This document shows, one piece after another, positions 3,102-53,200 of a stretch of DNA of 64,000 nt. The DNA comes from a bacterium (GTDB lineage: Bacteria > Vulcanimicrobiota > Xenobia > Xenobiales > JADMJV01). The notes below the pieces were generated by a model. The model was not told where the DNA came from. It saw nothing but the letters and a program-made list of their open reading frames with translations, and did not search any database. The position numbers were made by a program, and so were the translations under genes. The stretch is from assembly GCA_030149525.1 (NCBI GenBank), contig JASBRJ010000206.1, forward strand, positions 20,460 through 84,459, read 5' to 3'. How positions within the stretch are numbered: position 1 is the stretch's first letter; every line of letters begins with the position of its first letter.

Positions 3102-4477
3102 GGCAGGTTTGTCCGGCCGTGTTCGGAGCCGTAGTAGAAGGACGCGTCTTTGGCAAGTTCTTCCCACTTTTTCCGATACAGCCAGGGATTCTCGTCTTTG
3201 ATCGGTTCTTTTTTCACCTGCTGAGTCCAGGCTTCGGTCAGACAGTCGGCCTCATCAAAACAAGCTTGTGAGAAAGCTCGTCTCTCATCGACACTTTTCT
3301 CCCGCACGCTCGCCGCTTTCTCTTGGAAGCGCGTTTCTAGAGCATCGCGGGCGTCTTTGAACACCGGTAGTCGGTGGGTGTAGTCTTTGAGAACTTCTCG
3401 GTGGAGTCTCTCATGCTGCCACCAGAGCGTACTTTGATTGAACTGGCCGGTGGGGAATTCACCTATGGAGGGGATCCCCGTGTCGAACCAGAGAGGTTTG
3501 AAGACGCTTGTACAGGGAGCGGAGGTTCCGCTGAGCCAGTGGGTTGGGTTGGTGCTAGTGAGGTGACTCACCATGGAGCCTGTGGTCTGGTCGGTACGAA
3601 TCGGCCCAAAGCCCGTGTGCATGCAGACGGAATTGCCGAAGAGGCCCCGAGCCGGTGAATAGCCGGCACCCGCACCGGGTCCGTGATCTCTTAGCATCGC
3701 CATGACACTTGCCACAGTGATCCGACCTTTCTGCTCGGATAGAAGCTGAGTCAGGCGATTTTGTCGACCATCACCTCGTCCGAAGAAGGTGTAGAGATAG
3801 CTTGGATAGAGCCCTTTACCTCCGTAGCTCTTTTTGAAATTGAACGGCTTGCCGGGCTTGTGCCAGCCTTGAGATTCAGCGAAGCTGATGGTGTCTTTGG
3901 AGATCATGTCGTAGGTGGTTGTGATGGTGAGGGTGTTGGAGGTGGCTCTCACATCTCGCACTTTTTCCGCTACCCAATGCTTGCCGGCTGTTTCCAATAT
4001 CCATACCTCATGGTGATCGGCTATGAGAAAGGAGTTATGGTAGTAGAACTGGGTTCGGAACCCGCAATTGCCACCTTGTCCGAAGGTTTCAAGCAAGTTC
4101 GTAATCACCTCAACTGCCTGGATGGAGTTCTCAGCCCGTTCCAGGGCCAACCGGAGGAAGTCCATACCGGTGAGTCCGGGCCCGGTTTCATAGGGCACTT
4201 TGGTGAAGACAGCCGTGTTTCCGATGGTCAAACCGTGTTCGTTGGTGCCCATTTCTGCTCCCCATAGCCAGCAAGGCCGGGCCAATACAACGGAGTAGGT
4301 GTGAGGCACTTGAGGGATGCTCACGTAAGTGCACCGGACCACCGAACCATCCGGATGATCGGCTGCGGGAACCTGCTCCAGGGCGTGGGCTTCATTGGGG
4401 GCCCGGTCGCTGTTCTTTCCAAAAATGACGACCCCGTCTTTGGTCGAGTTCCCCAGGGCTACAACGTTATTACACAT
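3098..4477 (-). CDS. C69-family dipeptidase (N-terminal Cys nucleophile hydrolase)
   Basis: The product begins Met-Cys (MCNNVVALGNSTKDGVVIFGKNSDR), the hallmark of Ntn-hydrolase C69 dipeptidases, and has typical length. The start was taken at the Met directly before the Cys. Confidence 0.75.
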   Translation of the reverse strand: MCNNVVALGNSTKDGVVIFGKNSDRAPNEAHALEQVPAADHPDGSVVRCTYVSIPQVPHTYSVVLARPCWLWGAEMGTNEHGLTIGNTAVFTKVPYETGPGLTGMDFLRLALERAENSIQAVEVITNLLETFGQGGNCGFRTQFYYHNSFLIADHHEVWILETAGKHWVAEKVRDVRATSNTLTITTTYDMISKDTISFAESQGWHKPGKPFNFKKSYGGKGLYPSYLYTFFGRGDGRQNRLTQLLSEQKGRITVASVMAMLRDHGPGAGAGYSPARGLFGNSVCMHTGFGPIRTDQTTGSMVSHLTSTNPTHWLSGTSAPCTSVFKPLWFDTGIPSIGEFPTGQFNQSTLWWQHERLHREVLKDYTHRLPVFKDARDALETRFQEKAASVREKSVDERRAFSQACFDEADCLTEAWTQQVKKEPIKDENPWLYRKKWEELAKDASFYYGSEHGRTNLP

Positions 4478-5942
4478 CTTTATCTCCAAACCAACCGGTC
4501 TCAGGTTGCAATTTCGTGGTCATAAAATCGATGGCTTCTCCCACCGTCTTGAGCTTGTGAATGTCGAACTCGGCTTTCATCAGGCGAGATAGTTCCGTAA
4601 GCTTTTCTTTCAAAGGCAGCTGTTCATCGAGTTTCTGGGCGGTTTCATAGCAAGCGATGAGGCCGAGAATGTCACGCTGAAGATGTAGGAGCGGCGCCTT
4701 ACGATGCTCGGGATGAGGGGCGTAGGGCAGCGGTCGAATTTCGGGTCTGTCCGTGCGAGGCGTCTCAAGAGCGAGTACCTGTCCGAGACCGTTGGCAGCA
4801 GCGTCGCGCCTGGTGAGCGACTGGAGGTCCCACTTTTGAGTGACCGTCTTGATTATAGATGTGTGGCAGAATTCGGTATGAACCACCTGTCCTTGAGGAA
4901 TCCAGGGAGACACCAGAATGGTGGGCACTCGAACTCCCAAGCGATCAAAGCAGAACCCTTCTTCTCCCGACCGGCACTCTGCATCGGGTGGTACGGTGGC
5001 AGGGGGCAGGACATGATCGTAACAGCCTCCGTGTTCGTCGAAGGTGATCACGAGAAGGATTTTCTCCCATGCTTTTCCGTTTCGAATGGACTGGTAGATC
5101 TCGTTGACGAGAATTTCAGCTGCAGACACACTTGAAGTGACCAGAAACTTCTTATCTAAAGGGGGATGGGCGTCGTTATGGTCAAGGAAGAAACGAGGCT
5201 CAATGAGGCTGAAGGGGGGGAGTTCGCCGGACGCGGCATCTTTGTGAAAGTCCCCCATTTTCTTGAAGCGGCTATGAGGCATTTGCCACAAGGTGGGCTG
5301 GACCAACCTGGTTAGGGGCATAATGTCTAGCTCATCGTAGTAGATATGCCAAGCAAGACCTGCTTCTTCCAATCGGTTGAAGATGGTGGGCGAGTCAGTG
5401 AGCAACCACTTCGGCTCCGGACTGTTGTTCACAAAACCTCTTGAAGTGGAAGCCACCGAGAAGCAACGGTTGCAAAGCGTTTGGGAGGGCACCGATGAGA
5501 ACCATCGGTCGCACACGGCGTAGTGGTGGGCAAGGCCGCTCAGAACCGGCAAGCTGTCCGGGGTGAAGGCGTTCATGATGACTTGATAGTCGTTTCGGTT
5601 TGGCGTCTTTCCGGAGTGAGTTTGCAAGACCTTGATGTAGTCTTCCACAAACCCTTCCATGGTGTCCCCGCGTAGTTGGCGGACCACATGCTCAAACTCT
5701 TCGCCGGGATCGGGGCTGGGCTCCGTCATCACCCTACCCTTTGCTGCGGGGATGCGGGTGCCGGTCAGAGGGTCGGGATTGCTGAGGTTTTTCCCGCTCA
5801 GGCCGTCGAAGGTCTGGCCCGATGGAGGTGACTGGAACGGCGGTGCGTTTTCTGGGTCGTAAAGCCACCCTAGAACATTGTCAAAGGACCGGTTTTCTAA
5901 CATGAGAACAACGATGCTCTCGATCTTGGTCAGATTGGACAA
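4470..5942 (-). CDS. Phosphoesterase-family protein (phospholipase C / acid phosphatase AcpA-like)
   Basis: The N-terminus IESIVVLMLENRSFDNVLG is the signature of the phosphoesterase (PLC/AcpA) family; the product is about 490 aa. Confidence 0.75.
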   Translation of the reverse strand: MSNLTKIESIVVLMLENRSFDNVLGWLYDPENAPPFQSPPSGQTFDGLSGKNLSNPDPLTGTRIPAAKGRVMTEPSPDPGEEFEHVVRQLRGDTMEGFVEDYIKVLQTHSGKTPNRNDYQVIMNAFTPDSLPVLSGLAHHYAVCDRWFSSVPSQTLCNRCFSVASTSRGFVNNSPEPKWLLTDSPTIFNRLEEAGLAWHIYYDELDIMPLTRLVQPTLWQMPHSRFKKMGDFHKDAASGELPPFSLIEPRFFLDHNDAHPPLDKKFLVTSSVSAAEILVNEIYQSIRNGKAWEKILLVITFDEHGGCYDHVLPPATVPPDAECRSGEEGFCFDRLGVRVPTILVSPWIPQGQVVHTEFCHTSIIKTVTQKWDLQSLTRRDAAANGLGQVLALETPRTDRPEIRPLPYAPHPEHRKAPLLHLQRDILGLIACYETAQKLDEQLPLKEKLTELSRLMKAEFDIHKLKTVGEAIDFMTTKLQPETGWFGDKDV

Positions 5943-42825: not shown

Positions 42826-43668
42826 CTACCTATCGAATCGCCAAAGTTGCCGATTGGGTCGAAAGCCGCACAGTTGGGTGGCCACGTAAAACGATCTTTC
42901 GTTGGAAGCTGAGATCTCACCCACATAAAACTCGTAGCCTTTTTTCAGCAGGAGATTCTCGGCCGTGAGGACGAGAAATTGGGCAACCCCCTGACCCCAG
43001 TGGCTTTTTTGAACTCCGATATCCACCACCCAGGCCGTCCTTCGTTCGTCAAGCCTTAGAAGCAAGTAGCCTACGCGCTGCCGGCCACTGTCTTCAGCCA
43101 CGTAAAGCCGATACTCGGAACCCTCTGAATAGTCGAGCTTCAACAGAGACTGGGTCAGGATCCGGCTATAGGCGGAGAGTTCAGATTGTCGATGAGGGGG
43201 GAGAGTATGGGAGGCCACGGTGACGGCCAGCGCTGTGAGGAACGAGCGGTCGGATTCTTTGCCGCAGCGGAGTGTGAACGGATAATCAATGGATTGAGAA
43301 GACATGGGTTTACTCACGAAGCTTCTCAGGGGATAGAACCCGTGGCCTAGAAGAGTTTCACACCAGTCTCCCTCGGAGAAGAAAGCGGACGCCACCAGCG
43401 GCAACTCAGAAAGTTCACGCTTGGACTGCTCTAACAGAGCATCGACTTTACCCTCTGAGGCCCATAAGAGGGCGAGCGGCCTTTGAGTGTCGCGCTCAAG
43501 AGCGGTGGCGTCCCAGGCCAGAAAGCTGTCTTGTTCCTGAAAGAGTCTCGGTGCTTGACCCGATTCTAGATAGGCCAGTCTTTGGCTGCGACTATGCTCG
43601 AGATCCTCGGGGCGAAGACACTCTGGGAAGCTCGACTGGGATTCTACCCAAGCTTTGAGGTCAATCAA
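42826..43668 (-). CDS. GNAT-family N-acetyltransferase (C-terminal domain) with N-terminal extension
   Basis: The C-terminal 120 aa show the GNAT motif A pattern (VVDIGVQKSHWGQGVAQFLV). Confidence 0.55.
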   Translation of the reverse strand: MIDLKAWVESQSSFPECLRPEDLEHSRSQRLAYLESGQAPRLFQEQDSFLAWDATALERDTQRPLALLWASEGKVDALLEQSKRELSELPLVASAFFSEGDWCETLLGHGFYPLRSFVSKPMSSQSIDYPFTLRCGKESDRSFLTALAVTVASHTLPPHRQSELSAYSRILTQSLLKLDYSEGSEYRLYVAEDSGRQRVGYLLLRLDERRTAWVVDIGVQKSHWGQGVAQFLVLTAENLLLKKGYEFYVGEISASNERSFYVATQLCGFRPNRQLWRFDR

Positions 43669-44920
43669 CTTTCAACCCGCATTCGAAGAAGTGGGCGTAT
43701 AAAAACGGAAACCCGATGAGATCGGTGGTCGGATTGATGGGGCTCCCCAGATGACGGAAAGCTGCCAGATGTTGCACACGATACATGTTGTTGTAGACGT
43801 AGCGGCTGAAGTGGTTCTGCTGCTGTAGTATGTGGAGTCCAAGTTCATCGAGATCGGACCAGAATTTTTCCGGAGACTCCAGCAAACCCGGAAAAGTGGA
43901 AAGGAAGAGGCGGCTTTCGTCGTTCTTCTTGAGTGATGTTTTGGCGCATTCCAGAAAGAACCGCATCCCGTCGTCGGCGTAGGGTGGGTCGGTGGTCACG
44001 GCATCGTATTTGTCCTTCATCGAGTCGGGGACACCGTGGCGTAGATTATGCTCCAGAATCGTGAAGCGATTGTTTGACCTCTCCTTGAGGAAAGCTACTA
44101 GATCGGCGTCTAACTCGAGAATATCGACCTGAAGTGTGTCGGTCATCTCCACCAGAGCCAGGCCCACCAGGTCGTCGTCTCCCAAGACGAGAACTCTAGA
44201 GCCCGGCTTCAGGGCGTCTATGATTCGGCGGGCCCGAAGCTGAGTGGTTCTGGGAATGCAAAACTGTTGCTCGTATCGGAGCTTGAGAGCCGGTCGATCA
44301 AAAAAGAGTTTGACCAGATGGACATCGAGGTCTTCACTCTGGTCTTCCAGGTCGTGCTCTAGAAACGCCCGGCAGTGATCGAAGATGAAGTCGACCAGCC
44401 GAACCGGTTTGGTCATGAGTGGTCCCACATGCTCTGCCGGCCCCTGATAGGGCTGAGGCATAGAGTGCTCGCGGTAGAGTTTCTCCGTGCGTGCCAATCG
44501 ATTGAGCAGTTCCTCTCGGTCGGCGGCCGCCTCCAAGACCTCTCCGGTATGACTGGAAATATACTCCCGCATACTGAGGTCCATACGATGGACAAAGTCC
44601 GGCCAATCCTCCTCACCGGTGAGAACCAATCTGGCTCGATGAGCCCTTTCCAACCATTTGTCGCTAAGATCGGCATCGCCGTTCTGCAACGCCTGGAGCT
44701 TGTCCCAGGAATCTTCCTGAGCCAAAATGCGAGTGCCGAAGGCGAGGTTGATGAGAAGAACTTCCTGGGTTGTATTGCCGAACCGGGCGTCGAGATGGGG
44801 GCTGAGTCGGGGGACTTTGCTCATCTTGTTCGATTGCTTCTGGTCCTCCCAAGTCCCTTCCGCAGGTATCAGAATGGGAGACAAGAAGCCTGTTCTATGC
44901 TGCCACGCCAAGAGTCTCAT
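43661..44920 (-). CDS. DUF43-like putative aminopropyltransferase (branched-chain polyamine synthase BpsA-like)
   Basis: VLVLGDDDLVGLAL and TTDPPY motifs, as in DUF43 / bis-aminopropyl-spermidine synthases. The start is uncertain (TTG at 45022, ATG at 44920 or 44824). Confidence 0.5.
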   Translation of the reverse strand: MRLLAWQHRTGFLSPILIPAEGTWEDQKQSNKMSKVPRLSPHLDARFGNTTQEVLLINLAFGTRILAQEDSWDKLQALQNGDADLSDKWLERAHRARLVLTGEEDWPDFVHRMDLSMREYISSHTGEVLEAAADREELLNRLARTEKLYREHSMPQPYQGPAEHVGPLMTKPVRLVDFIFDHCRAFLEHDLEDQSEDLDVHLVKLFFDRPALKLRYEQQFCIPRTTQLRARRIIDALKPGSRVLVLGDDDLVGLALVEMTDTLQVDILELDADLVAFLKERSNNRFTILEHNLRHGVPDSMKDKYDAVTTDPPYADDGMRFFLECAKTSLKKNDESRLFLSTFPGLLESPEKFWSDLDELGLHILQQQNHFSRYVYNNMYRVQHLAAFRHLGSPINPTTDLIGFPFLYAHFFECGLKVD

Positions 44921-45007
44921 CACCCTCTCGACAAAGTCCGCTTCGGCCTCATGGTGGCCATAGGCGGAGAAGACCCGAAAGAGACCCTCGAAGTGATTGC
45001 TCAACAG

Positions 45008-46543
45008 ATGTCTACCGTGCAAAACGAACTGGCGGAGATTCCTAAAAGGGCACTGGAGCTAGGGCCTGACTTCGAGGCGAGTGCGGGGGATAAACTTCGC
45101 CGCTTGCTTGCCGTTTTTCAACGTTACTCCACCTGGTTGGACCGGACCAGAACGGCTCTCACCGGTGGTGATACAGCTTCGATGATGGAGTTGCACGAAG
45201 AGAGCCAAGATCTTCTCCCCACCATCACGGAGGCTCTGGACGCTTACAATAGAGCGTTTGCAAATTTCGGTCCGTTCCAAAGCGCGGTCACCAACTCTCT
45301 CCGGCGTGTGGCCGAGGGTATTGAAGCGGGCAGAGTCGTGCCCGCTACCTGGAGCCAGTATGCGGAGTTTTATCAGTCTGAGTTGAAATCCAAGTTGGAG
45401 AGTCTGATGCAGCTTGACCTTCCAGGCCGAACTCCCCTTCTGGAGGGTTATGCCGAAGCCCTGAAATTGGTATCGCAGATGGCCGCTGAGCCCCCTGCAG
45501 CCGCAGACAGCGTCAACAAGGCTCTCGACTTGCTGGATGCTTCTCTGGCTCCGGCCGAGATTTTGGAATCCGTCCTGGCCGAATCTCAAAAGGAGAAAGC
45601 TGCGAAGATACCGGCCACGGCAGCACTTCTCCATGTGGTGAAGAATGCTCGCGAGCTTTTGGGAGAAGAGCTCGTGCTGGCCGTTCTCGACGACTATAAC
45701 GAGACGGTCGAAGGCTACCTTGAGACCTTTGAAAGAGCTGTGGCCCGACCCACTCATTCCGATCTCATACGAGAGGAAATACCGCGCACGCTCGACACCA
45801 TCGACAGTCACTTTATGCTCATTGAGGAACTCAACGATGCTCTGGAGGCGGGAGAGACGACACTGGAAGAGCTTCTTCAGAAGATTCAACAGAGCGCGGA
45901 CCGTTTGGTGGAGTCCCGGGAGGTCTACGAGGTGGCGGCCCTTCACCATTCCTACAAAGCCTGTCCCTCTTGTTCAAGATCGAATCCGCCCGAGAACCTT
46001 TCTTGCGAGGCGTGTGGGGAACTGCTACCACGCGTGGATCGAACGGCGAGAACTCCCTCGTCCACTTTCAGTTTGATGTCGGGTCCGATTTCTGAGGAAA
46101 CGCAGCAAGCGGAGATGACGGAGAATGTGGCGCGACTTTTTCAGGCCTGCGACGACGTCCACGACAAAAAGATCGGGCGCGAGCAGTTCAAAGAGGAACT
46201 GAAGCGGGCGGCTGATTCCCTCGCCGATTTCGTAGAGGAATACGAGAATCAAGTGAATTTGGCTTTGGATGAGTCACTCTTTAGCCCCGAAGAATGGCAG
46301 AGTTGGAAAAGCCATCACCTGCCGCACCTGGAAGACCTGGCTATTAGCTATCATAGCGGGATCGAGGATCTTCGAAGCGGGTTGGTGAGTATGGAAGCCT
46401 ATCTCAAAGAGCCGGAGCGCGATCATCTGGTGGAGGGAGTCCGGCTTTACTGGCAAGGCATCCAGGCTATCCATCGCGGAAAACTCGCCATACAGACTCA
46501 CGCCAAGCTTCTAGACGACTTATTCAAAGAGTCCCAGAATTAG
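45008..46543 (+). CDS. Hypothetical alpha-helical protein with an internal zinc ribbon
   Basis: 511-aa helical, acidic product with CPSCSRSNPPENLSCEACG (CxxC-x11-CxxC). The start was taken at MSTVQNELAEI to avoid overlapping the divergent DUF43 gene. Confidence 0.5.
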   Translation: MSTVQNELAEIPKRALELGPDFEASAGDKLRRLLAVFQRYSTWLDRTRTALTGGDTASMMELHEESQDLLPTITEALDAYNRAFANFGPFQSAVTNSLRRVAEGIEAGRVVPATWSQYAEFYQSELKSKLESLMQLDLPGRTPLLEGYAEALKLVSQMAAEPPAAADSVNKALDLLDASLAPAEILESVLAESQKEKAAKIPATAALLHVVKNARELLGEELVLAVLDDYNETVEGYLETFERAVARPTHSDLIREEIPRTLDTIDSHFMLIEELNDALEAGETTLEELLQKIQQSADRLVESREVYEVAALHHSYKACPSCSRSNPPENLSCEACGELLPRVDRTARTPSSTFSLMSGPISEETQQAEMTENVARLFQACDDVHDKKIGREQFKEELKRAADSLADFVEEYENQVNLALDESLFSPEEWQSWKSHHLPHLEDLAISYHSGIEDLRSGLVSMEAYLKEPERDHLVEGVRLYWQGIQAIHRGKLAIQTHAKLLDDLFKESQN

Positions 46544-47775
46544 ATCCCCATGTTGGCAAAGGCTGCCACTCGTCCGTCCGGATCGATCTGGTGGAGTTTC
46601 CTGGCCTCGGCCATGGCTAGCCCCTCTTTACCCTGGCGCTTGTAGAGCCGAATCAAGGCGGTTCGTATCTTCAATCCGTAAATCGTATCTTCCGAGAGTC
46701 GCGCAGCTTTTCTCAGAGCTTTGATCGTCTTTTGCACGTCCCCATTGATCTCTCGGGCCTGGGCTTCCGTCCAACAAGGAGCGTAGGCCTTGCGGTCAAG
46801 CTTCTGAGCGGTCAGAGAGTGTTTTAAGGAATCCTCCGGGCGACCCAGTGAAAGCAGCAACTCAGCGCAGAGATTGTGCAAATACAGTTGGCCGTCCTGG
46901 GAGAGTCCTGGGAGGGAGAGTATCTCCTCCCACACCACCAGCGCTTCTTCATACCTCTTGAGGGCGTGAAGACTTGTTCCCTTGAGATAAAGTTCTTCCA
47001 CCCCGGGGTTTGCCAGGTCGTCAAGCTCCAATAGAGCGTCTTCGTATTGCCGGCAACGAACCCTGGCAGCCAATTTATCGAGAGGGCGCTCAAAATACTC
47101 CTCGGCTTCACTACGTATCACATCGTTTTCAAGCCACGGTTTGGCCAGTCGACGTTGCGCGTCGGGAGTAAAGCCGCCTTTCACCGAATAGGCCACCGTG
47201 GTAAGAAGGCTTGGAACGGAGCGGATGGCCCGGGCGAACATGTCAGACTCTTGCCAAACCGTTCCGTCGTCGTTAAGGAAGTAGTCCACATCAATGTCCA
47301 GTAGGACCGGCTCCTCGGGCAACTCAAGAGCCTCTAAAGGCCCCATCTCAAAAGGGATCCCCAAAAGCGTTCCATGGACGCGTCGACCCTCATAGCTGAG
47401 AGAGCGAAACTCCTGGGGTGACAGTTCGAACCATTCGTTGAGGTGATGTTTGGCCCAGGTGAGAAGGCCCGCTTCAGGGAGATCCGGAGGCAAGACCCAG
47501 GTGAGTTTTCCCACGATCCCTTCCTTTATGGCCGGATAAATGTAGTTTCCGCAATGCAGGCCCCCCCAGGGAAGATAACTGTTTCCCAAAGCACCCTGCT
47601 CAAGAACCTCTTGCGGCGTGCGGCAGTTCTTAATCAGGCGCAGACGCTCTTCGCTGAGTCCGGTACGACCTATGTCCAGGTGAGCATCCACATGCCAACA
47701 CCAGGCGTTCTGGACCCGGTGTGATTTCCAAGCGAAGTAGGCGTGGTAGTGCTCTTCCATCAGAATAACACTCAT
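46540..47775 (-). CDS. UPF0489-family domain fused to C-terminal TPR repeats
   Basis: N-terminus MEEHYHAYFAWK ... WHVDAHLD ... LLDIDVDYF (UPF0489 EDHHE / DSHPD / DIDLDFF pattern); TPR-like helices in the last ~150 aa. Confidence 0.55.
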   Translation of the reverse strand: MSVILMEEHYHAYFAWKSHRVQNAWCWHVDAHLDIGRTGLSEERLRLIKNCRTPQEVLEQGALGNSYLPWGGLHCGNYIYPAIKEGIVGKLTWVLPPDLPEAGLLTWAKHHLNEWFELSPQEFRSLSYEGRRVHGTLLGIPFEMGPLEALELPEEPVLLDIDVDYFLNDDGTVWQESDMFARAIRSVPSLLTTVAYSVKGGFTPDAQRRLAKPWLENDVIRSEAEEYFERPLDKLAARVRCRQYEDALLELDDLANPGVEELYLKGTSLHALKRYEEALVVWEEILSLPGLSQDGQLYLHNLCAELLLSLGRPEDSLKHSLTAQKLDRKAYAPCWTEAQAREINGDVQKTIKALRKAARLSEDTIYGLKIRTALIRLYKRQGKEGLAMAEARKLHQIDPDGRVAAFANMGI

Positions 47776-48374
47776 GCGTCCTCACCTCGTTTTCTCTTCC
47801 GCCGTCTGGCATGAATTCTAGCCAGTCTCCGGGCCACGGCTTTTCTCTGTTCACGCTCTTTCTCGGCCTCTTCCATGATTTGGCGAGCTTGCGGTGTACA
47901 GGCGCGAAAAAAACTGTAGCTTTCCAGCACGCAGTCGTATCGGCCGGCGGTGTTGATGAGGCGATTATCGGCTCGACATTCTCCCGACATGAAATGCACT
48001 CCCAGATCTCCTGTGAGAGTGGCGGCAGCCTCAAAGAGAAGGATACCGATGTTGTGTCCGGCGTAGCCGGGTACCACGGCAAAATCTTCTACACAGGTTT
48101 GGCGACGACCCAACTGATCGAGGTCGAACAGATTCAGCATGAGATAGCCCACCCGGAGGTTGTTTTTCTCACGATCTACGGCCACCAGAAATCGAAAGCT
48201 TCCTTCCTGAGCGAAACGCACCAACTCGGGGAACTCTTTTTCGATGAAGTCGGCGCATTCGCTGGGAGAGGAACGCGGTCCGCCTAACGTATGAATCGAC
48301 GCCTCAACCGCCAGTTCACGAATCCAATTCGTGTCCTCCGGTCCGGCGTCGATAACCTCAAATCTCTGACCCAT
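47772..48374 (-). CDS. GNAT-family acetyltransferase with a basic tail
   Basis: GNAT core (VGYLML ... VVPGYAGHNIGILL) and C-terminal RRLARIHARRRKRKRGEDA. Its start overlaps the upstream gene stop by 4 nt. Confidence 0.5.
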   Translation of the reverse strand: MGQRFEVIDAGPEDTNWIRELAVEASIHTLGGPRSSPSECADFIEKEFPELVRFAQEGSFRFLVAVDREKNNLRVGYLMLNLFDLDQLGRRQTCVEDFAVVPGYAGHNIGILLFEAAATLTGDLGVHFMSGECRADNRLINTAGRYDCVLESYSFFRACTPQARQIMEEAEKEREQRKAVARRLARIHARRRKRKRGEDA

Positions 48375-48407
48375 AGAGGGAGATGTTGAAGAGGCGGGGA
48401 TTTTTTC

Positions 48408-49103
48408 CTATACGAATACTCCGGCTTGAGCATAAAGACTTGCGCCCGCAATCATCCCACCGGCAGGGCTGGCTCCCGGGCCGAGCCCGATGCCCGCGCC
48501 AAAAGAGAGTCCCAGTCCGGCCTGGGCTCCGCCAAAGAGAGCCTGAGGTCCCAGACCCGCACCGGCTGCACGGATACCCGGGCTTCCAGCAGCCAGATTG
48601 ATACCCGCAGGCATCCCCCCAAGTCGAGGAACACCGAGTTGGGGGGCTCCTCCGATATTGATGTTGAGGCCGTTTCCTCGTCCGGCAGCGATCTGCGGTC
48701 CGCCCCCCACATTGATGTTCAAGCCACCGGGCGCACCTGCAGGTCCGCCGGCCCCTAAGTTGATGTTGACCCCGGGGCCGCCCATGCCGGGGGCTCCCAT
48801 TCCCGGCCCGCCCATCATAGCGGCGTTCATTCCTTGCTGACAGCAACCGCCCATGGGACATCCACATTTCTTGCCCATCATGGCCTGTTGGCTCATCTGA
48901 ACCATCTGATTCATCATACCCATCATGGTTCGCATCTGTTGCTGCTGCTGTTGAGCCTGCATCAACTGCTCTCGTTGCTGACGATTCATACGGGGAGCAC
49001 GAGGGCTCTTGGCACCTTCCGAGGCTCCCGCCGAACTGGCGATGCTACCTACTGTTCCAGCAATACTGCCGGCTGCGCTTGCGATTCCACCTAAAGCTCC
49101 CAT
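48408..49103 (-). CDS. Low-complexity Met/Gln/Cys/Gly-rich protein with GxNINxGG repeats
   Basis: Perfect Shine-Dalgarno GAGGAG 5 nt upstream of the ATG. N-terminal glycine zipper, polyQ, a Met-rich tract (MMGMMNQMVQMSQQAMMG), a Cys cluster KKCGCPMGGCCQQGM, then repeated GVNINLGAGG / GLNINVGGG / GLNINIGGA motifs. Confidence 0.55.
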   Translation of the reverse strand: MGALGGIASAAGSIAGTVGSIASSAGASEGAKSPRAPRMNRQQREQLMQAQQQQQQMRTMMGMMNQMVQMSQQAMMGKKCGCPMGGCCQQGMNAAMMGGPGMGAPGMGGPGVNINLGAGGPAGAPGGLNINVGGGPQIAAGRGNGLNINIGGAPQLGVPRLGGMPAGINLAAGSPGIRAAGAGLGPQALFGGAQAGLGLSFGAGIGLGPGASPAGGMIAGASLYAQAGVFV

Positions 49104-49164
49104 ATGAATTCTCCTCGTTAGTCTTGTGTTGATGAGAGTTTCTCACGAAGGGCAGACCTGAAGT

Positions 49165-49638
49165 ATGAAAACTGAACCAGCACATGTGAACCCGATAAGA
49201 ACTCCGTGTAACCAAGTTGTTAACGAGCGGTCAGGGGTTGAGAAGGAGCTTTCGGGCCGGCTTATGGAATCGGAACAGTCTATGACACTCCCCAGTGCTC
49301 AACATCAAGAGAAGTTTCAAGAAAAATCGGACCCGGCGATCTGTTGCCGGGCCTGCGGGCAACTTGTGACCAGACGAAACTGCAACGGTCCCGACACGGT
49401 GGACTCGGAACGCACCTTCCGCAATCCCGCCGGATACTCATTTCATGTGAAGGTTTTTGGTGAAGCCGAAGGATGCCGAGTGGTCGGAGAGGCTGTCAGT
49501 GAAGCGTCCTGGTTTCCCGATTATGCCTGGAGGTTGGCCCTTTGTCGGGAGTGTGACACCCATCTTGGTTGGAGGTTCGAGAAATCCGGCCACTCTGACT
49601 TCTGGGGCTTGATAGTGACCAGATTGACCGGTGTTTAA
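49165..49638 (+). CDS. Bacterial CULT-domain (cereblon-like) protein
   Basis: CRACGQ ... FRNPAGYSFHV ... WFPDYAWRLALCRECDTHLGWRFE ... FWGLI matches the CULT zinc-ribbon / tri-Trp pocket pattern. The true start may lie at an internal Met (49264 or 49285). Confidence 0.65.
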   Translation: MKTEPAHVNPIRTPCNQVVNERSGVEKELSGRLMESEQSMTLPSAQHQEKFQEKSDPAICCRACGQLVTRRNCNGPDTVDSERTFRNPAGYSFHVKVFGEAEGCRVVGEAVSEASWFPDYAWRLALCRECDTHLGWRFEKSGHSDFWGLIVTRLTGV

Positions 49639-50609
49639 TTCTTACCGAGTAGCACCCGTCGATTCTCTGAAAGAATGGTGCGACACATCTCGGGGTCGGG
49701 CTCGGAGTCTTCCACTCCCTCCTCAAACGTTCCACCCAAAACCAGCATGTCGGGCCGGGAGATGACATAGCCTGCACTGTGATCGATGATGAAGCTCTCT
49801 GATGCCGGTTCCAACAAGACAAGCTGGCCTCTTATCGGCCTCACTGCATGATCTTCAACAACACGACCGGCGCCCAGGCCCAGGCAATTGATAAAGAGGG
49901 TCTCGGGCAGTTCAAGGATTTGGTTCAAGTGGTGGAACTCGTATTCTCGAAAAGCACCGCCCCGTTCTTCAATGTCGCTTGCCAGTTGATGCAAAAATCT
50001 CGGGGTCTGGATGAGAAGGGTCTCGCTATATAGACATTCCCCGACGTATCCACTGATGGGCAATCGGGCCATGGTAGAGGGCTCCGGGGTAATCCCATCA
50101 GGGAAAGGATCGAGGGGGTGAGAACGATCGGGAGTTTCATACAGGGGAACTTTGGAGATGCCGTATCTCTTGGAGTCCAGGCTGAGGTAGGTGTTCCAGG
50201 TCTCACGCAACATGCGATCCCTCAGTTCGTCGTCTTCGAGGCCGAGATGGGTGGGTGCCCAAAGACCGCCGGCCACGTTCGAAGTGGTGTTGGGGGGAAA
50301 CTCCTTGCTGTAAACAGTTACAGGATGCCCTCGTTGAGAGAGGAGATGGGCCGAACAAAGTCCCATCACTCCGGAGCCTAGAACGCCCACAGGGAGTCCG
50401 GGGCTGAGGTGGTTTCCCAGAAGGTTCAGAACTTCCAGGCAAGAGCCCCAGCAAAGAGTGATCCCGCTGCCGCCGTGCCCATAGTTGTGAGCCACGATCT
50501 TTTGACCGAGATGCTCAACGGCCAGCCGGGGGCCACCCGCGCGATAAGGACGAAGGCCGGCAACCACCCCTCGGACACGCCCGTCATCAAGTTGGAGTTC
50601 AATCTCCAT
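49635..50609 (-). CDS. D-amino-acid-oxidase-like FAD flavoenzyme, apparently circularly permuted
   Basis: Residues ~35-60 (VAHNYGHGGSGITLCWGSCLEVLNLLG) match the normally C-terminal DAAO FAD-binding motif. Residues ~70-110 (VGVLGSGVMGLCSAHLL ... VYSKEFPPNTTSNVAGGLWAP) match the normally N-terminal GxGxxG Rossmann motif and the AAGLW segment. The ORF then ends where the C-terminal motif would normally follow. The start overlaps the upstream gene stop (TAATG). Confidence 0.65.
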   Translation of the reverse strand: MEIELQLDDGRVRGVVAGLRPYRAGGPRLAVEHLGQKIVAHNYGHGGSGITLCWGSCLEVLNLLGNHLSPGLPVGVLGSGVMGLCSAHLLSQRGHPVTVYSKEFPPNTTSNVAGGLWAPTHLGLEDDELRDRMLRETWNTYLSLDSKRYGISKVPLYETPDRSHPLDPFPDGITPEPSTMARLPISGYVGECLYSETLLIQTPRFLHQLASDIEERGGAFREYEFHHLNQILELPETLFINCLGLGAGRVVEDHAVRPIRGQLVLLEPASESFIIDHSAGYVISRPDMLVLGGTFEEGVEDSEPDPEMCRTILSENRRVLLGKN

Positions 50610-51691
50610 TAGGACTTCCAGCGAACCGACTTCAACCAGGGTAGACCGAGAGCACCCTTACCAAGCTCCAGCTCAAGATTCGTATTCTGGGCCCGACTGT
50701 TGAAGACGCTTCTAGACACTGCGATCTCCTCGGGAAGTTCAACAGCGTCGTCTTCACCGGCGGCGAGTCGCGCATGGTAGGTGTAGTAGCGACCGTTCTT
50801 GGTCTTGTGTTCCTTACTGTACATGCTGCGCACGGTTGCTTCCACCCTTATGCTCGGGCCCGTATCGAGTCCGATATTGATATCTTCAAGCAGCAGAATT
50901 CCCGCCACCGGGAGACTTAAAATCAGCAGCACGGCGCTTTCGATGATGATGCGATGGCCCCGAGACGACCCACTGAAGAGAGTCCGAATTACGCTGATAA
51001 GTGCTGCAAAAAGTCCCAGCCCCAGACCCAGTCCTAGCCAGACCTGTTGGCCCCAGTGAAGCAGGAGAGTTTCTCTTGTGGTCACCAGTTCCATAAACCC
51101 CATGAAGGCGTATCCGCTCACGGCGAAGAGGACGGCCTCGGTGATAAAAGCCTTGTAAAAGAAAGGTTCTTTATACATGGGCGTGGGCTCGTTTTTCATC
51201 CCTTTCATGCTTTCAGAGAGCTCAATCAGCCTCTTGAAATCGAGATCGGAGACGTCATCGCTACCCTTGGCAGTTATCCAAAGACGTTCGCCGTCACACT
51301 GAATCTCGTGGAAATCCTTGGAAAGAACTTGATGAACCTTATCTCTGGTCTGCTGGGAAAGAGAAAGATGATCGGCCAGCAACGGGTTGTCGGAAACAAC
51401 GTAGACGAGATCGTCGAATTTTCTGTCGCCTGTTTGGAGTTCGGTGGAAAGACCCCAGTCCTTAAAGCGTGTGTCCCAGGTCGATTCTCGAACAAATCGG
51501 AATTTGGGACCCGGATGATCGACTCCCACGCTTCGACCCGTGATTCGTCCTTTGTGCTTGCTGAGCGAAACATAACATGTCTTATCCCTGTAGTCTTTTT
51601 GAGACGCTCCACGGAACTTCTTCGCATTCAAACCGATGAGGAGACCGATGCCTGCTCCCAGCATTTTCAGGAAAAACCAAATAAGCCACAT
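50609..51691 (-). CDS. Multi-pass membrane protein of unknown function
   Basis: N-terminal TM helix, a ~150-aa soluble region, three more TM helices including a LGLGLGLGL tract, and a C-terminal soluble region. Confidence 0.5.
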   Translation of the reverse strand: MWLIWFFLKMLGAGIGLLIGLNAKKFRGASQKDYRDKTCYVSLSKHKGRITGRSVGVDHPGPKFRFVRESTWDTRFKDWGLSTELQTGDRKFDDLVYVVSDNPLLADHLSLSQQTRDKVHQVLSKDFHEIQCDGERLWITAKGSDDVSDLDFKRLIELSESMKGMKNEPTPMYKEPFFYKAFITEAVLFAVSGYAFMGFMELVTTRETLLLHWGQQVWLGLGLGLGLFAALISVIRTLFSGSSRGHRIIIESAVLLILSLPVAGILLLEDINIGLDTGPSIRVEATVRSMYSKEHKTKNGRYYTYHARLAAGEDDAVELPEEIAVSRSVFNSRAQNTNLELELGKGALGLPWLKSVRWKS

Positions 51692-51764: not shown

Positions 51765-52403
51765 TCAGAGTTTTTTCAGCCGACGAATGGTCTCGGTGGC
51801 TGCCACTTGCCCTTTCAGGTTCCCCTCCACAGGTCGAGACTCCAGAGTCTGAATGGCGTAACGCCCGCCGTAGTGCTTCTCGATCTCTTGCCGACTGATA
51901 GAAAAAGGCGGCCCGTCCATGAGACTTTGGTCGTATTGGAAAGTGATGAGAAGCTGTGGGGCGGTGCCGGAAATTTCTACCAAATGGGCTGCATATTCAT
52001 GCCGTGTGCTCTCGGGGAGGGCCACCATGGCCGCTCTGTCGTAAACCGCTTGAACCCGGCCGAGCGTGTCGGAGTGGAGATGGAAGATGTTGCCCACGAA
52101 GAAATCCAGCCCCGGTGCGGCGTAATGCTTCATCCGTCCTCGGCTGGTGACCTCGGGCTCCACTTCGAGTTCCTGGAACAGTTCTTTGATGGCCGACTCA
52201 TTCAGTTCCGCTCCTGCCACGGCGCACCCTTGAGATCTCAGCCAGGCGATGTCTCTGGTCTTTCCGCAAAGAGGGAGAAAGACTCTGGCTCCGTCTGCCA
52301 GGTTGAGTGCGGAGAAATGCTCCACGAGCAGTGAGTTGGGTCGGCCCTCATGAAAGCCGATCTCTCGATTCTCCCATTTTTTATGCCAAAATTCAGGTTC
52401 CAT
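51765..52403 (-). CDS. tpm: Thiopurine S-methyltransferase
   Basis: FWHKKWENREIGFHEGRPNSLLVEHF ... RVFLPLCGKTRDIAWL, the canonical TPMT N-terminal signature. Confidence 0.85.
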   Translation of the reverse strand: MEPEFWHKKWENREIGFHEGRPNSLLVEHFSALNLADGARVFLPLCGKTRDIAWLRSQGCAVAGAELNESAIKELFQELEVEPEVTSRGRMKHYAAPGLDFFVGNIFHLHSDTLGRVQAVYDRAAMVALPESTRHEYAAHLVEISGTAPQLLITFQYDQSLMDGPPFSISRQEIEKHYGGRYAIQTLESRPVEGNLKGQVAATETIRRLKKL

Positions 52404-53200
52404 TAATCCTTACCCGCAGCGGCCTTTTCTGGTTGAGCTTTGCCGGCCAGGGGAGTCTCCTCAAAAGGTGTCCACCCGGTCTCAGGAAGCAGAATTTCCA
52501 ACCCGGTGAACTGTTCCTTGTAGCGAAGCTTCTTCGCCAGCGTGTTCATAAAGCCGATATAGAGGTGTGGCCAGTCACGCTGGGCACACATCTCAATCTC
52601 TTTGAGAAACGTGAAGACTCCAAGTCGGCGTCGAGGTACGGTGAGGTCGTAATAACAGTAGTGAGAGTAGATACCTCGTTCGCCGATGTCGATAGTGCTC
52701 ACAGCCAACAGACGGTCGCCTTGCCAGTAGGAGACCTCTTTGGTGTGACCCATCTGGTTGAGGTGCCAGGAATCATAAAATGCCAGTCTTTCACGGTCCG
52801 TTGTGAGGTGGTCGGTTTTGGTTTGGAACTGGGTCTTCACGAAGGTCTCAAAAAGCTCGAATTTTTTTGCGGTCATCTCCACCGGACCTATTCTCTGGAT
52901 CAGGTCTTTGTTGCGATTTCGAGTTCGTCTCATGGAACGGGTCCAACGGAACGATTTCAAAGCGATGCGGGCGGGATGACAGTATCGACATCCGTAGCAA
53001 GCGGGGAGGCAGTAGAGAGGGCCGAACCGGCCGCCACCAAGATGCATGAGTCGGTCGATGCTCTCATCGTGGAGAGCAAGCAGTGACCACTCCCGTCCGG
53101 GCAAGAAGTTACACGGATGATTGGGAAGCCGACAGGAGAGGGGAGGGTTATCGCGCCATCCGGGCTCGACGGCGTCCCATAGACCAAGAAGGTGACGCAC
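52403..53200 (-). CDS. bpt: Arginyl/leucyl-tRNA--protein transferase (Bpt/Ate1 family)
   Basis: RFGPLYCLPACYGCRYCHPARI Cys cluster, followed by an ATE_C-like GNAT-fold half (FYDSWHLNQMG). Confidence 0.65.
   Translation of the reverse strand: MRHLLGLWDAVEPGWRDNPPLSCRLPNHPCNFLPGREWSLLALHDESIDRLMHLGGGRFGPLYCLPACYGCRYCHPARIALKSFRWTRSMRRTRNRNKDLIQRIGPVEMTAKKFELFETFVKTQFQTKTDHLTTDRERLAFYDSWHLNQMGHTKEVSYWQGDRLLAVSTIDIGERGIYSHYCYYDLTVPRRRLGVFTFLKEIEMCAQRDWPHLYIGFMNTLAKKLRYKEQFTGLEILLPETGWTPFEETPLAGKAQPEKAAAGKD

Follow-up and report, generated by a model that had tools for sequence, protein, structure and literature searches.

Bacterial peptide arginases of the PF12640 (UPF0489) family that have been characterised all convert peptide-bound arginine to ornithine, and free arginine is not accepted by OspR (PMC10028609, PMC12703449). 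They share the signature motifs EEH(N/H)EAF, DXHXD and LDIDLDYFSC (PMC12703449), and the binuclear manganese centre of OspR is held by His12, Asp39, His41, Asp43, Asp165 and Asp167, with Glu11 in addition (PMC10028609, PMC12703449). The precursor types described for these enzymes are NHLP, N11P, SCIFF, SCCRRSCN, DD(I/V)LF and MGXRRSSE (PMC12703449), of which the DD(I/V)LF precursors of the FlmR/OhkR family are orphans (PMC10028609, PMC12703449). In the selidamide pathways KspA/KspR/KspN and PhaA/PhaR/PhaN, which yield RiPPs (peptides that are made on the ribosome and modified after translation; Hubrich et al., 2022, PMC8784127), the PF12640 arginase must act first and a GNAT-family enzyme then fatty-acylates the ornithine side chain, the acylated residue being core position 1 or 2, directly past the Gly-Gly leader junction (PMC8784127, PMC13647313). 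Here we compare these systems with a locus on a 64,000-nucleotide stretch of contig JASBRJ010000206.1 (assembly GCA_030149525.1, positions 20,460 to 84,459; hereafter the window), in which a gene for a 231-residue glycine-rich low-complexity protein, X, stands next to genes encoding a peptide-arginase-like enzyme fused to a TPR domain (Arg-TPR) and a GNAT-fold acyltransferase (GNAT1).

X and Arg-TPR were adjacent and co-directional in all 14 loci that contain both (43-100% Arg-TPR identity), with GNAT1 lying between them in 12. This genetic lock, and the RxPRM element that is the sole invariant feature of the X family, go beyond an earlier reading of the window made from the sequence alone, and the lock suggests that the locus is organised around post-translational modification. 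We put at about even the chances that an arginine-to-ornithine and N-acylation module, which would resemble the selidamide pathways while acting on a disordered protein of 126-231 residues, has X as its dedicated protein substrate. The lists of precursor types for peptide arginases (PMC12703449) do not include the RxPRM type of this putative precursor, and X belongs to no described family.

The gene for X is genuine, lies on the minus strand and is under purifying selection. The comparison was made with two diverged contigs, L001 (66% amino-acid identity of the X ortholog) and L008, against which the differences at codon positions 1, 2 and 3 were 42/31/136 and 29/28/97, respectively, the proportion of nonsynonymous differences (pN) being about 0.17 and that of synonymous differences (pS) about 0.77, which is saturated. 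No stop codon interrupts the frame of X in the window, L001 or L008, and each of the five other frames is stopped in at least one of these sequences. Thus the minus-strand open reading frame (ORF), which the sequence-only reading had thought probably real and had proposed to check in related genomes, is retained there with synonymous-site variation. The same reading had judged a His/Leu-rich ORF on the opposite strand to be spurious; this candidate gene was ruled out, since the exactly antisense frame gave a ratio of nonsynonymous to synonymous rates (dN/dS) of about 1.7-1.8 and contains stops in the orthologs. Strain variants at L004-L006, all synonymous, were not used as selection evidence because an exact-protein look-up forces synonymy.

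The first 38 codons of X are themselves under purifying selection (position bias 5/1/19 against L001 and L012, mostly synonymous changes), and the upstream ATG is therefore taken as the true start. Met39, whose equivalent had been chosen as the start by several gene callers for X orthologs, was rejected in view of this bias, the Shine-Dalgarno (SD) sequence before the upstream ATG and the cysteine that replaces Met39 in one member of the family. The mis-start is systematic: entries P0001, P0005, P0011, P0012, P0014, P0017, P0019, P0024 and P0026 begin at the methionine of RxPRM and lose the conserved N-terminal segment together with one or both invariant arginines. Regarding expression signals, the GAGGAG that had been described as a textbook SD is present, with a spacer of 7 nt where 5 nt had been given, and a GGAGG-type SD is kept ahead of all X orthologs and of the distant analogs described below, which makes the earlier impression of strong expression plausible. 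The ORF does fill the interval between its neighbours, a divergent gene for a 157-residue protein that starts at 49165 and GNAT1 with its ATG at 48374.

Searches of Pfam, NCBIfam and PADLOC with X gave nothing above threshold, in agreement with the earlier failure to place the protein in a family, and only compositional matches below it (Med3, CopL); Pfam likewise gave no match for eight further X-family members and analogs. A first protein search (5.8 billion proteins) found two homologs; when 1.84 billion cluster representatives were scanned exhaustively with HMMER, six relatives emerged and no more, and a profile built from 14 sequences found at least 26 in a larger database among the best 8000 word-sharing candidates that were scored. 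The family comprises about 40 unannotated sequences, all titled "hypothetical protein", with Candidatus Eremiobacterota as the organism wherever one is stated, and is limited to metagenome-assembled genomes (MAGs) and metagenomes of Vulcanimicrobiota/Eremiobacterota (class Xenobia). A genome scan anchored on the 411-residue Arg-TPR yielded ten MAG loci, all ten with an X-like ORF at the equivalent position; six are labelled Vulcanimicrobiota or Ca. Xenobia and four Burkholderiales or Selenomonadaceae. The latter titles ('uncultured Burkholderiales' for L013, L018 and L022, 'Selenomonadaceae' for L015), carried despite the shared syntenic module, are probably MAG mislabels.

In an alignment of 14 family sequences (A4), R35, P37, R38 and M39 were invariant, and members outside it keep RxPR[M/C]. 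The architecture begins with a segment of 20-34 Gly/Ala/Ile/Val/Leu/Ser residues that ends in GGG(G) and leads into R-x-P-R-M, so that the invariant family block reads GGG(G)-x-R-x-P-R-M after a short Gly/Ala/Ile N-segment; a Gln/Asn/Met-rich helix follows, then a central region with 3-7 cysteines at variable positions, a hypervariable Gly-rich body and a short G-[IV]-[NS]-[LMF]-x-[FVAI] terminus. The body differs in the number and type of its repeats (NINL in the window, ten copies of GGGF in L017, GNSF in L019-L021), the polyQ and Met-rich tracts are absent in L015, L017 and L018-L022, and the proteins are nearly without acidic residues. In L019-L021 the two arginines of RxPR are two of only three in the entire protein. 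This pattern of a variable body around a sole invariant block with two arginines is, at the level of sequence, precursor-like.

X itself consists of 25% Gly, 16% Ala, 9% Gln and 9% Met, with two acidic residues. The polyQ run, MxxM clusters, cysteine cluster and three GxNINxGG repeats of the sequence-only reading were all located: QQQQQQ occupies residues 51-56, five overlapping MxxM motifs residues 57-70, and the G-x-N-I-N-x-G units start at residues 111, 127 and 145, with a degenerate GINL at 167. A tandem-repeat scan of the X DNA found short imperfect repeats only, and the NINL units are accordingly not recent duplications. As to the glycine zipper that had been proposed for the N-terminus, residues 1-34 form a small-residue segment with G12xxxG16xxG19 only and no canonical GxxxGxxxG. 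The best 19-residue Kyte-Doolittle mean of this segment is 1.34, borderline for a transmembrane helix, as are the maxima across the family (1.2-1.65, 19 residues). The AlphaFold2 (AF2) model of X has no confident fold (predicted local distance difference test, pLDDT, 44 overall): a helix is predicted at residues 41-76 (pLDDT ~75) and a weak one at 8-22, with short strands of low confidence in the G-x-N-I-N-x-G region, disorder elsewhere and pLDDT below 40 in the tail (152-231).

Arg-TPR carries the hallmarks of a peptide arginase. Used as a profile, its top sequence match in the PDB was OspR (8brp; E 2.9e-4, 23% identity). All three signature motifs are represented, as MEEHYHAYF, HVDAHLD and LLDIDVDYFLN, with cores invariant in 47 homologs, and in a hidden Markov model (HMM) alignment to 8brp the six manganese ligands of OspR and Glu11 map to H9, D30, H32, D34, D162, D164 and E8, the six being invariant over the 47 homologs (A6) and E8 over the four sequences of a further alignment (A2). 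The AF2 model from a deep alignment is very confident (pLDDT 95; predicted template-modelling score, pTM, 0.92), and its arginase alpha-beta-alpha fold has OspR as best structural match and not a conventional arginase for free arginine. A TPR domain, of the peptide-binding type, is invariably joined to the catalytic domain, and precomputed PF12640 matches are on record for some TPR-fused relatives that are more distant. Arg-TPR is, on the strength of its motifs, manganese ligands, OspR match and model, a divergent peptide-arginase-fold domain followed by a TPR solenoid. In the searchable literature neither a TPR-fused arginase nor an association of arginases with BpsA_C-like and Zn-ribbon genes was found.

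GNAT1 was recognised as an acetyltransferase by Pfam (Acetyltransf_1, 22.3 bits against a cutoff of 20.7), and its closest PDB relatives are generic acetyltransferases (E >= 0.008). Its gene overlaps that of Arg-TPR by ATGA (47772-47775), to which it is translationally coupled, no SD-like purine run precedes it, and a spacer of 33 nt (48375-48407) separates it from X. The strong SD on X, against none or coupling on the enzyme genes, suggests that translation yields X in surplus over its enzymes. In L008, between the stop of the X homolog and the start of GNAT1 (~530-568), a terminator-like hairpin AAAACCCCCU...AGGGGGUUUU was observed (free energy -22.5 kcal/mol, z -2.5) that a simple terminator scan had missed and that may dampen read-through towards the enzyme genes of this lineage; the 33-nt spacer of the window is without such structure.

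Two further genes accompany the module. The BpsA_C-like gene (Pfam BpsA_C, E 3e-18; PDB 5xnc BpsA, E 3e-10) is co-located in most Xenobia and distant loci, and the gene for ZnR, a protein of about 550-720 residues, is syntenic in most loci, with profile searches of PDB and Pfam giving generic helical-bundle and zinc-ribbon matches only and no catalytic domain. For GNAT2, a second acetyltransferase, an ortholog was seen in the window lineage and L001 alone. Membership of a defence system was rejected, the lone PADLOC match being a methyltransferase-like one (mad2) to the BpsA_C-like gene.

The arrangement also recurs in distant lineages. More distant TPR-fused relatives of Arg-TPR (~30% identity) were traced to contigs and 59 metagenomic loci, and in eight of these (L023, L026, L027, L032, L034, L035, L037, L078) a Gly-rich ORF adjoins the enzyme gene. 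The encoded proteins have 155-213 residues, 22-39% Gly, hardly any acidic residues and a strong SD each; their arginines lie mostly in the N-terminal third, in repeats of the GxVVRGVG type at an Arg-rich N-terminus, and most have a C-terminal cysteine cluster, cysteine being absent from some. In six of the eight, GNAT1, the Zn-ribbon protein or BpsA_C is represented by a homolog that accompanies the enzyme, and in the other two, L037 and L078, the enzyme gene is cut off by the end of the contig, which hides any further partners; in distant systems ZnR directly follows the Gly-rich gene. With the same composition filter no such ORF was detected in about 45 loci that have a generic UPF0489 domain only, and X alone was picked out of the 64-kb window. 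As the X-family HMM gave no significant match to the distant Gly-rich proteins, these are treated as analogs, or as diverged beyond recognition, and not as family members. Four distant contigs were too short for a Gly-rich neighbour to be judged. The Acidobacteria protein P0149/L028 was rejected as a module relative, its similarity being confined to the TPR; this TPR+PqqD protein (6001-7629 of L028, MAG GCA_001767435.1) lies in a RiPP-like radical-SAM cluster, between three radical-SAM genes and a ScmC-like gene.

If X is the substrate, its efficient translation would supply an excess of a Gly-rich protein, nearly acid-free and mostly disordered, that has a single Gln/Met-rich helix besides a short N-segment of small residues. 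The TPR domain of Arg-TPR would dock X, and the binuclear-manganese arginase domain would hydrolyse the guanidinium group of Arg35 and/or Arg38 to give ornithine and urea; besides full-length X, GGGGPRAPRMNRQQ is a candidate peptide substrate of Arg-TPR. The co-transcribed GNAT would then N-acylate a free amine, by analogy with the selidamides the new ornithine delta-amine (with an acetyl or fatty acyl group) or, alternatively, the Gly2/Ala2 N-terminus. The net result would be that positive charge beside the hydrophobic N-segment is removed or replaced, which may alter membrane anchoring or the self-association of the Gly-rich body, and the BpsA_C-like transferase and the Zn-ribbon protein would be probable extra partners, in amine alkylation and as scaffold or chaperone, respectively. 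A bolder proposal, possible and put forward only tentatively, is that these genes form an unrecognised, phylogenetically scattered five-gene system (Gly-rich Arg-headed protein, TPR-fused peptide arginase, GNAT, BpsA-like transferase and Zn-ribbon protein) that remodels a full-length disordered structural protein and not a small RiPP. Arginine would there become ornithine, whose new amine would be acylated and possibly aminopropylated to give a lipid- or polyamine-tailed protein, as a bacterial counterpart of the charge editing of low-complexity proteins or of silaffin-like polyamine modification, and how the Gly-rich body anchors to a membrane or assembles with itself would be governed by these changes.

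The selidamide precedent is close in some respects and remote in others. Both systems combine a ribosomal substrate (a putative one in the case of X), a PF12640-type arginase and a GNAT-family enzyme, and the invariant GGG(G)-x-R-x-P-R layout, with the arginine pair just past a Gly run, is reminiscent of the Gly-Gly junction that precedes the selidamide site. Unlike the selidamide clusters, the X locus has a TPR-fused arginase and includes the BpsA_C-like transferase and the Zn-ribbon protein as added conserved partners. Arg-TPR resembles OspR and the FlmR/OhkR family in its motifs and complete set of metal ligands, and the latter also in having an orphan type of putative precursor as its partner, but the C-terminal TPR solenoid is lacking in OspR. 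A likeness by analogy only may be drawn with eukaryotic FG/RGG-type proteins, which are subject to arginine deimination or methylation: the X family has GGGF, GNSF, NINL and polyQ tracts and predicted disorder, and is linked to an enzyme predicted to remove guanidinium charge. There is no homology between them, the system is bacterial, and the chemistry would be that of an Arg-to-Orn ureohydrolase and not citrullination.

Several observations weigh against X being the substrate of such a module. Its modification is deduced from genomic context. RiPP hallmarks were not detected: X has no NHLP or Nif11 leader by Pfam and NCBIfam, the syntenic genes and the 8 kb to either side of X include neither LanM nor a C39 protease/exporter, and X, a Gly-rich disordered protein where selidamides have a short core peptide, is far longer than typical precursors. 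GNAT1 is absent from the L015 and L018 loci. The N-terminal half of Arg-TPR matched the NCBIfam peptide-arginase model far below its cutoff (E 7e-7, 29 bits against 350), as it did PF12640 in Pfam (14.8 bits against 27), so that the enzyme represents a divergent branch whose substrate could differ. The lack of significant similarity between the X family and the distant Gly-rich proteins counts here as well, as do four high-GC loci (L024, L038-L040) with the enzyme and no detectable Gly-rich gene within about 4 kb. Finally, small-molecule polyamine metabolism would equally fit acetyltransferases that occur together with one enzyme of ureohydrolase fold and another of aminopropyltransferase-like type.

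The polyamine alternative, the leading rival and in our assessment rather unlikely, is that the ureohydrolase acts on agmatine or aminopropylagmatine alongside a BpsA-like aminopropyltransferase and the acetyltransferases, while X remains an unmodified, co-regulated structural or disordered protein (e.g., a polyamine-responsive or polyamine-binding scaffold) or a mere syntenic neighbour. It would account for the BpsA_C-like genes being the best-conserved neighbours (54-76% identity) with a branched-chain polyamine synthase as closest solved relative, for the tight Arg-TPR/GNAT/BpsA_C operons of L023 and L029 with the Gly-rich gene not inside the operon, for the ArgC- and ornithine transcarbamylase-type arginine-biosynthesis genes within 6 kb in L001 and for the four loci with the enzyme and without a Gly-rich neighbour. 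However, known agmatinases and aminopropylagmatinases belong to PF00491 and not to PF12640, and the action of every characterised bacterial PF12640 enzyme on peptide-bound arginine, the structural proximity of Arg-TPR to OspR and the constant fusion to a TPR domain all speak against it. The persistence across lineages of a Gly-rich Arg-headed partner whose sequence has diverged beyond recognition is also hard to explain without a direct functional tie.

Improbable, for its part, is that X serves as precursor to a product of the glycine-rich bacteriocin or microcin-like kind that is secreted and acts on membranes, with a leader cut at GGG(G) and the PRxPR end matured to an ornithine or acyl-ornithine head, in effect a giant selidamide-like lipopeptide. 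Class II microcins and glycine-rich bacteriocins such as microcin E492 and colicin V are Gly/Ala-rich, with few charged residues, cysteine pairs and small-xxx-small N-segments, and X recalls them in these features, in its scarcity of acidic residues, its cysteine cluster and its hydrophobic C-terminus. The Gly-Gly-then-Arg layout parallels KspA, which is acylated at core position 1 (PMC8784127, PMC13647313), and the lineage is related to marine Eremiobacterota that are rich in biosynthetic gene clusters (BGCs; PMC9259500). Yet X is two to three times longer, shares no sequence similarity with them by Pfam and NCBIfam, and its N-segment, itself under purifying selection, is without the charged/hydrophobic double-glycine-leader pattern; the conserved block has no C39 peptidase, ABC exporter or immunity gene, the product would be a low-complexity protein of 100-200 residues, and the distant analogs have arginine at the extreme N-terminus with no leader-like stretch ahead. 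The soft-metal likeness that the sequence-only reading had seen in the Met and Cys tracts does not hold up well, and we consider it highly improbable that X is a binder or buffer of Cu(I), Ag(I) or similar ions by means of its Met-rich helix and Cys cluster. A Met-rich tract adjoins cysteines in the window protein, which like its close orthologs has MxxM clusters and CGCPxGGCC, every family member has 3-7 central cysteines, and there is a weak match to the CopL family of Met/His-rich metal binders (E 0.047), but this scored 14.3 bits against a 40-bit cutoff, half of the family lacks the Met-rich tract, the cysteines vary in number and position, no metal transporter, chaperone or regulator occurs in the conserved neighbourhood, and RxPRM, which is what stays invariant, is no thiolate or thioether motif. 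As for X being a chance untranslated open frame in GC-rich repeat-like DNA, its extreme composition, the two homologs of the first search and the lack of a confident AF2 fold could be so explained, but we see next to no prospect of it given the third-position-biased divergence with saturated synonymous sites and low pN, a frame that alone is open throughout the orthologs, a conserved SD and an operon position kept in 14 loci.

Coordinates of X, its features and the accompanying genes in the window (position 1 is the first nucleotide of the window)
Feature	Position	Strand	Remarks
X, 231-aa glycine-rich low-complexity protein	48408-49103	-	ATG start; stop codon included
Shine-Dalgarno GAGGAG of X	49111-49116	-	7-nt spacer (AATTCAT) to ATG
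Sigma-70-like promoter candidate upstream of X, TTCACA-17-CATACT	49162-49190	-	weak; 9/12 consensus match only
X residues 1-34, N-terminal Gly/Ala/Ser/Ile small-residue segment (MGALGGIASAAGSIAGTVGSIASSAG...)	49002-49103	-	
X residues 35-39, R-A-P-R-M, candidate modification site	48987-49001	-	sole family-invariant block
X residues 41-76, Gln/Met-rich helix with QQQQQQ and MxxM clusters	48876-48983	-	
X residues 80-88, Cys cluster CGCPMGGCC	48840-48866	-	
X residues 111-151, three G-x-N-I-N-x-G repeats in Gly/Pro/Ala linkers	48651-48773	-	
X residues 152-231, Gly/Ala/Pro-rich disordered tail with degenerate GINL and hydrophobic C-terminus (..AGVFV)	48411-48650	-	
Antisense His/Leu-rich ORF, 86 aa	48834-49094	+	mirrors Met/Gln codons of X; spurious
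GNAT1, 200-aa GNAT-fold acyltransferase with basic C-terminal tail	47772-48374	-	33 nt downstream of X
Arg-TPR, 411 aa, peptide-arginase-like (PF12640/UPF0489) domain and TPR domain	46540-47775	-	
ZnR, helical protein of about 650-720 aa with one invariant CxxC...CxxC zinc ribbon	44375-46543	+	convergent with Arg-TPR; start probably near 44591
BpsA_C-like class-I transferase (aminopropyl- or methyltransferase fold)	43661-45022	-	start codon uncertain
GNAT2, 280-aa acetyltransferase	42826-43668	-	C-terminal half paralogous to GNAT1

Other genes were observed around the module. The divergent 157-residue protein (49165-49638, plus strand) has two CxxC pairs and a weak Yippee/Mis18-like match (E 0.008), and its gene lacks synteny in L001, the position being taken there by a 4HBT thioesterase. 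In more distant Xenobia loci X has as its immediate upstream neighbour a conserved gene for a protein of about 221-249 residues (NYHRYLFQWHCRKFFRFRR...YTLYFP) that has neither a Pfam match nor a window homolog (L009, 1742-2407; L011, 3547-4290; L016-L022, e.g., L020, 4043-4792). About 3-4 kb upstream of X in the window there are genes encoding an arginyl/leucyl-tRNA-protein transferase (ATE_N+ATE_C; 52403-53200, minus strand) and a thiopurine S-methyltransferase-family protein (51765-52403, minus strand), neither of which is among the genes called around the X homolog of L001, and it may be by chance that an enzyme of protein arginylation lies close to a putative arginine-editing module. A 360-residue protein (50609-51691, minus strand) has GLGLGLGL within hydrophobic segments and no Pfam or NCBIfam match. 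A 682-residue protein (27582-29630, plus strand) is 36% identical over 563 residues to the product of a gene directly after the Arg-TPR/GNAT set of L027 (9516-11528); both have weak sub-threshold matches to Peptidase_Mx (zinc metallopeptidase-like), and the window protein could be a distant module accessory. In L027 a PIN-domain toxin gene with a small upstream gene, a toxin-antitoxin pair (4055-4715, minus strand), lies between the Zn-ribbon and BpsA_C-like genes.

Peptide arginases have so far been known from RiPP natural-product clusters with short precursors only. The system described here differs in the permanent TPR fusion, in the lock to a 126-231-residue disordered Gly-rich protein whose arginine pair is its sole invariant feature and in the GNAT, BpsA-like transferase and Zn-ribbon partners, and this arrangement is met again in distant lineages, there with Gly-rich proteins that look unrelated. 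For annotation there is a concrete correction to gene calls, many X-family members having been mis-started at the invariant methionine of RxPRM. If X is indeed the substrate of Arg-TPR and GNAT1, arginine-to-ornithine editing would extend from small peptides to proteins, with a new substrate class and a new mode of recognition, TPR docking in place of leader binding, and the "hypothetical" low-complexity proteins of an uncultured, BGC-rich phylum would gain a testable function.

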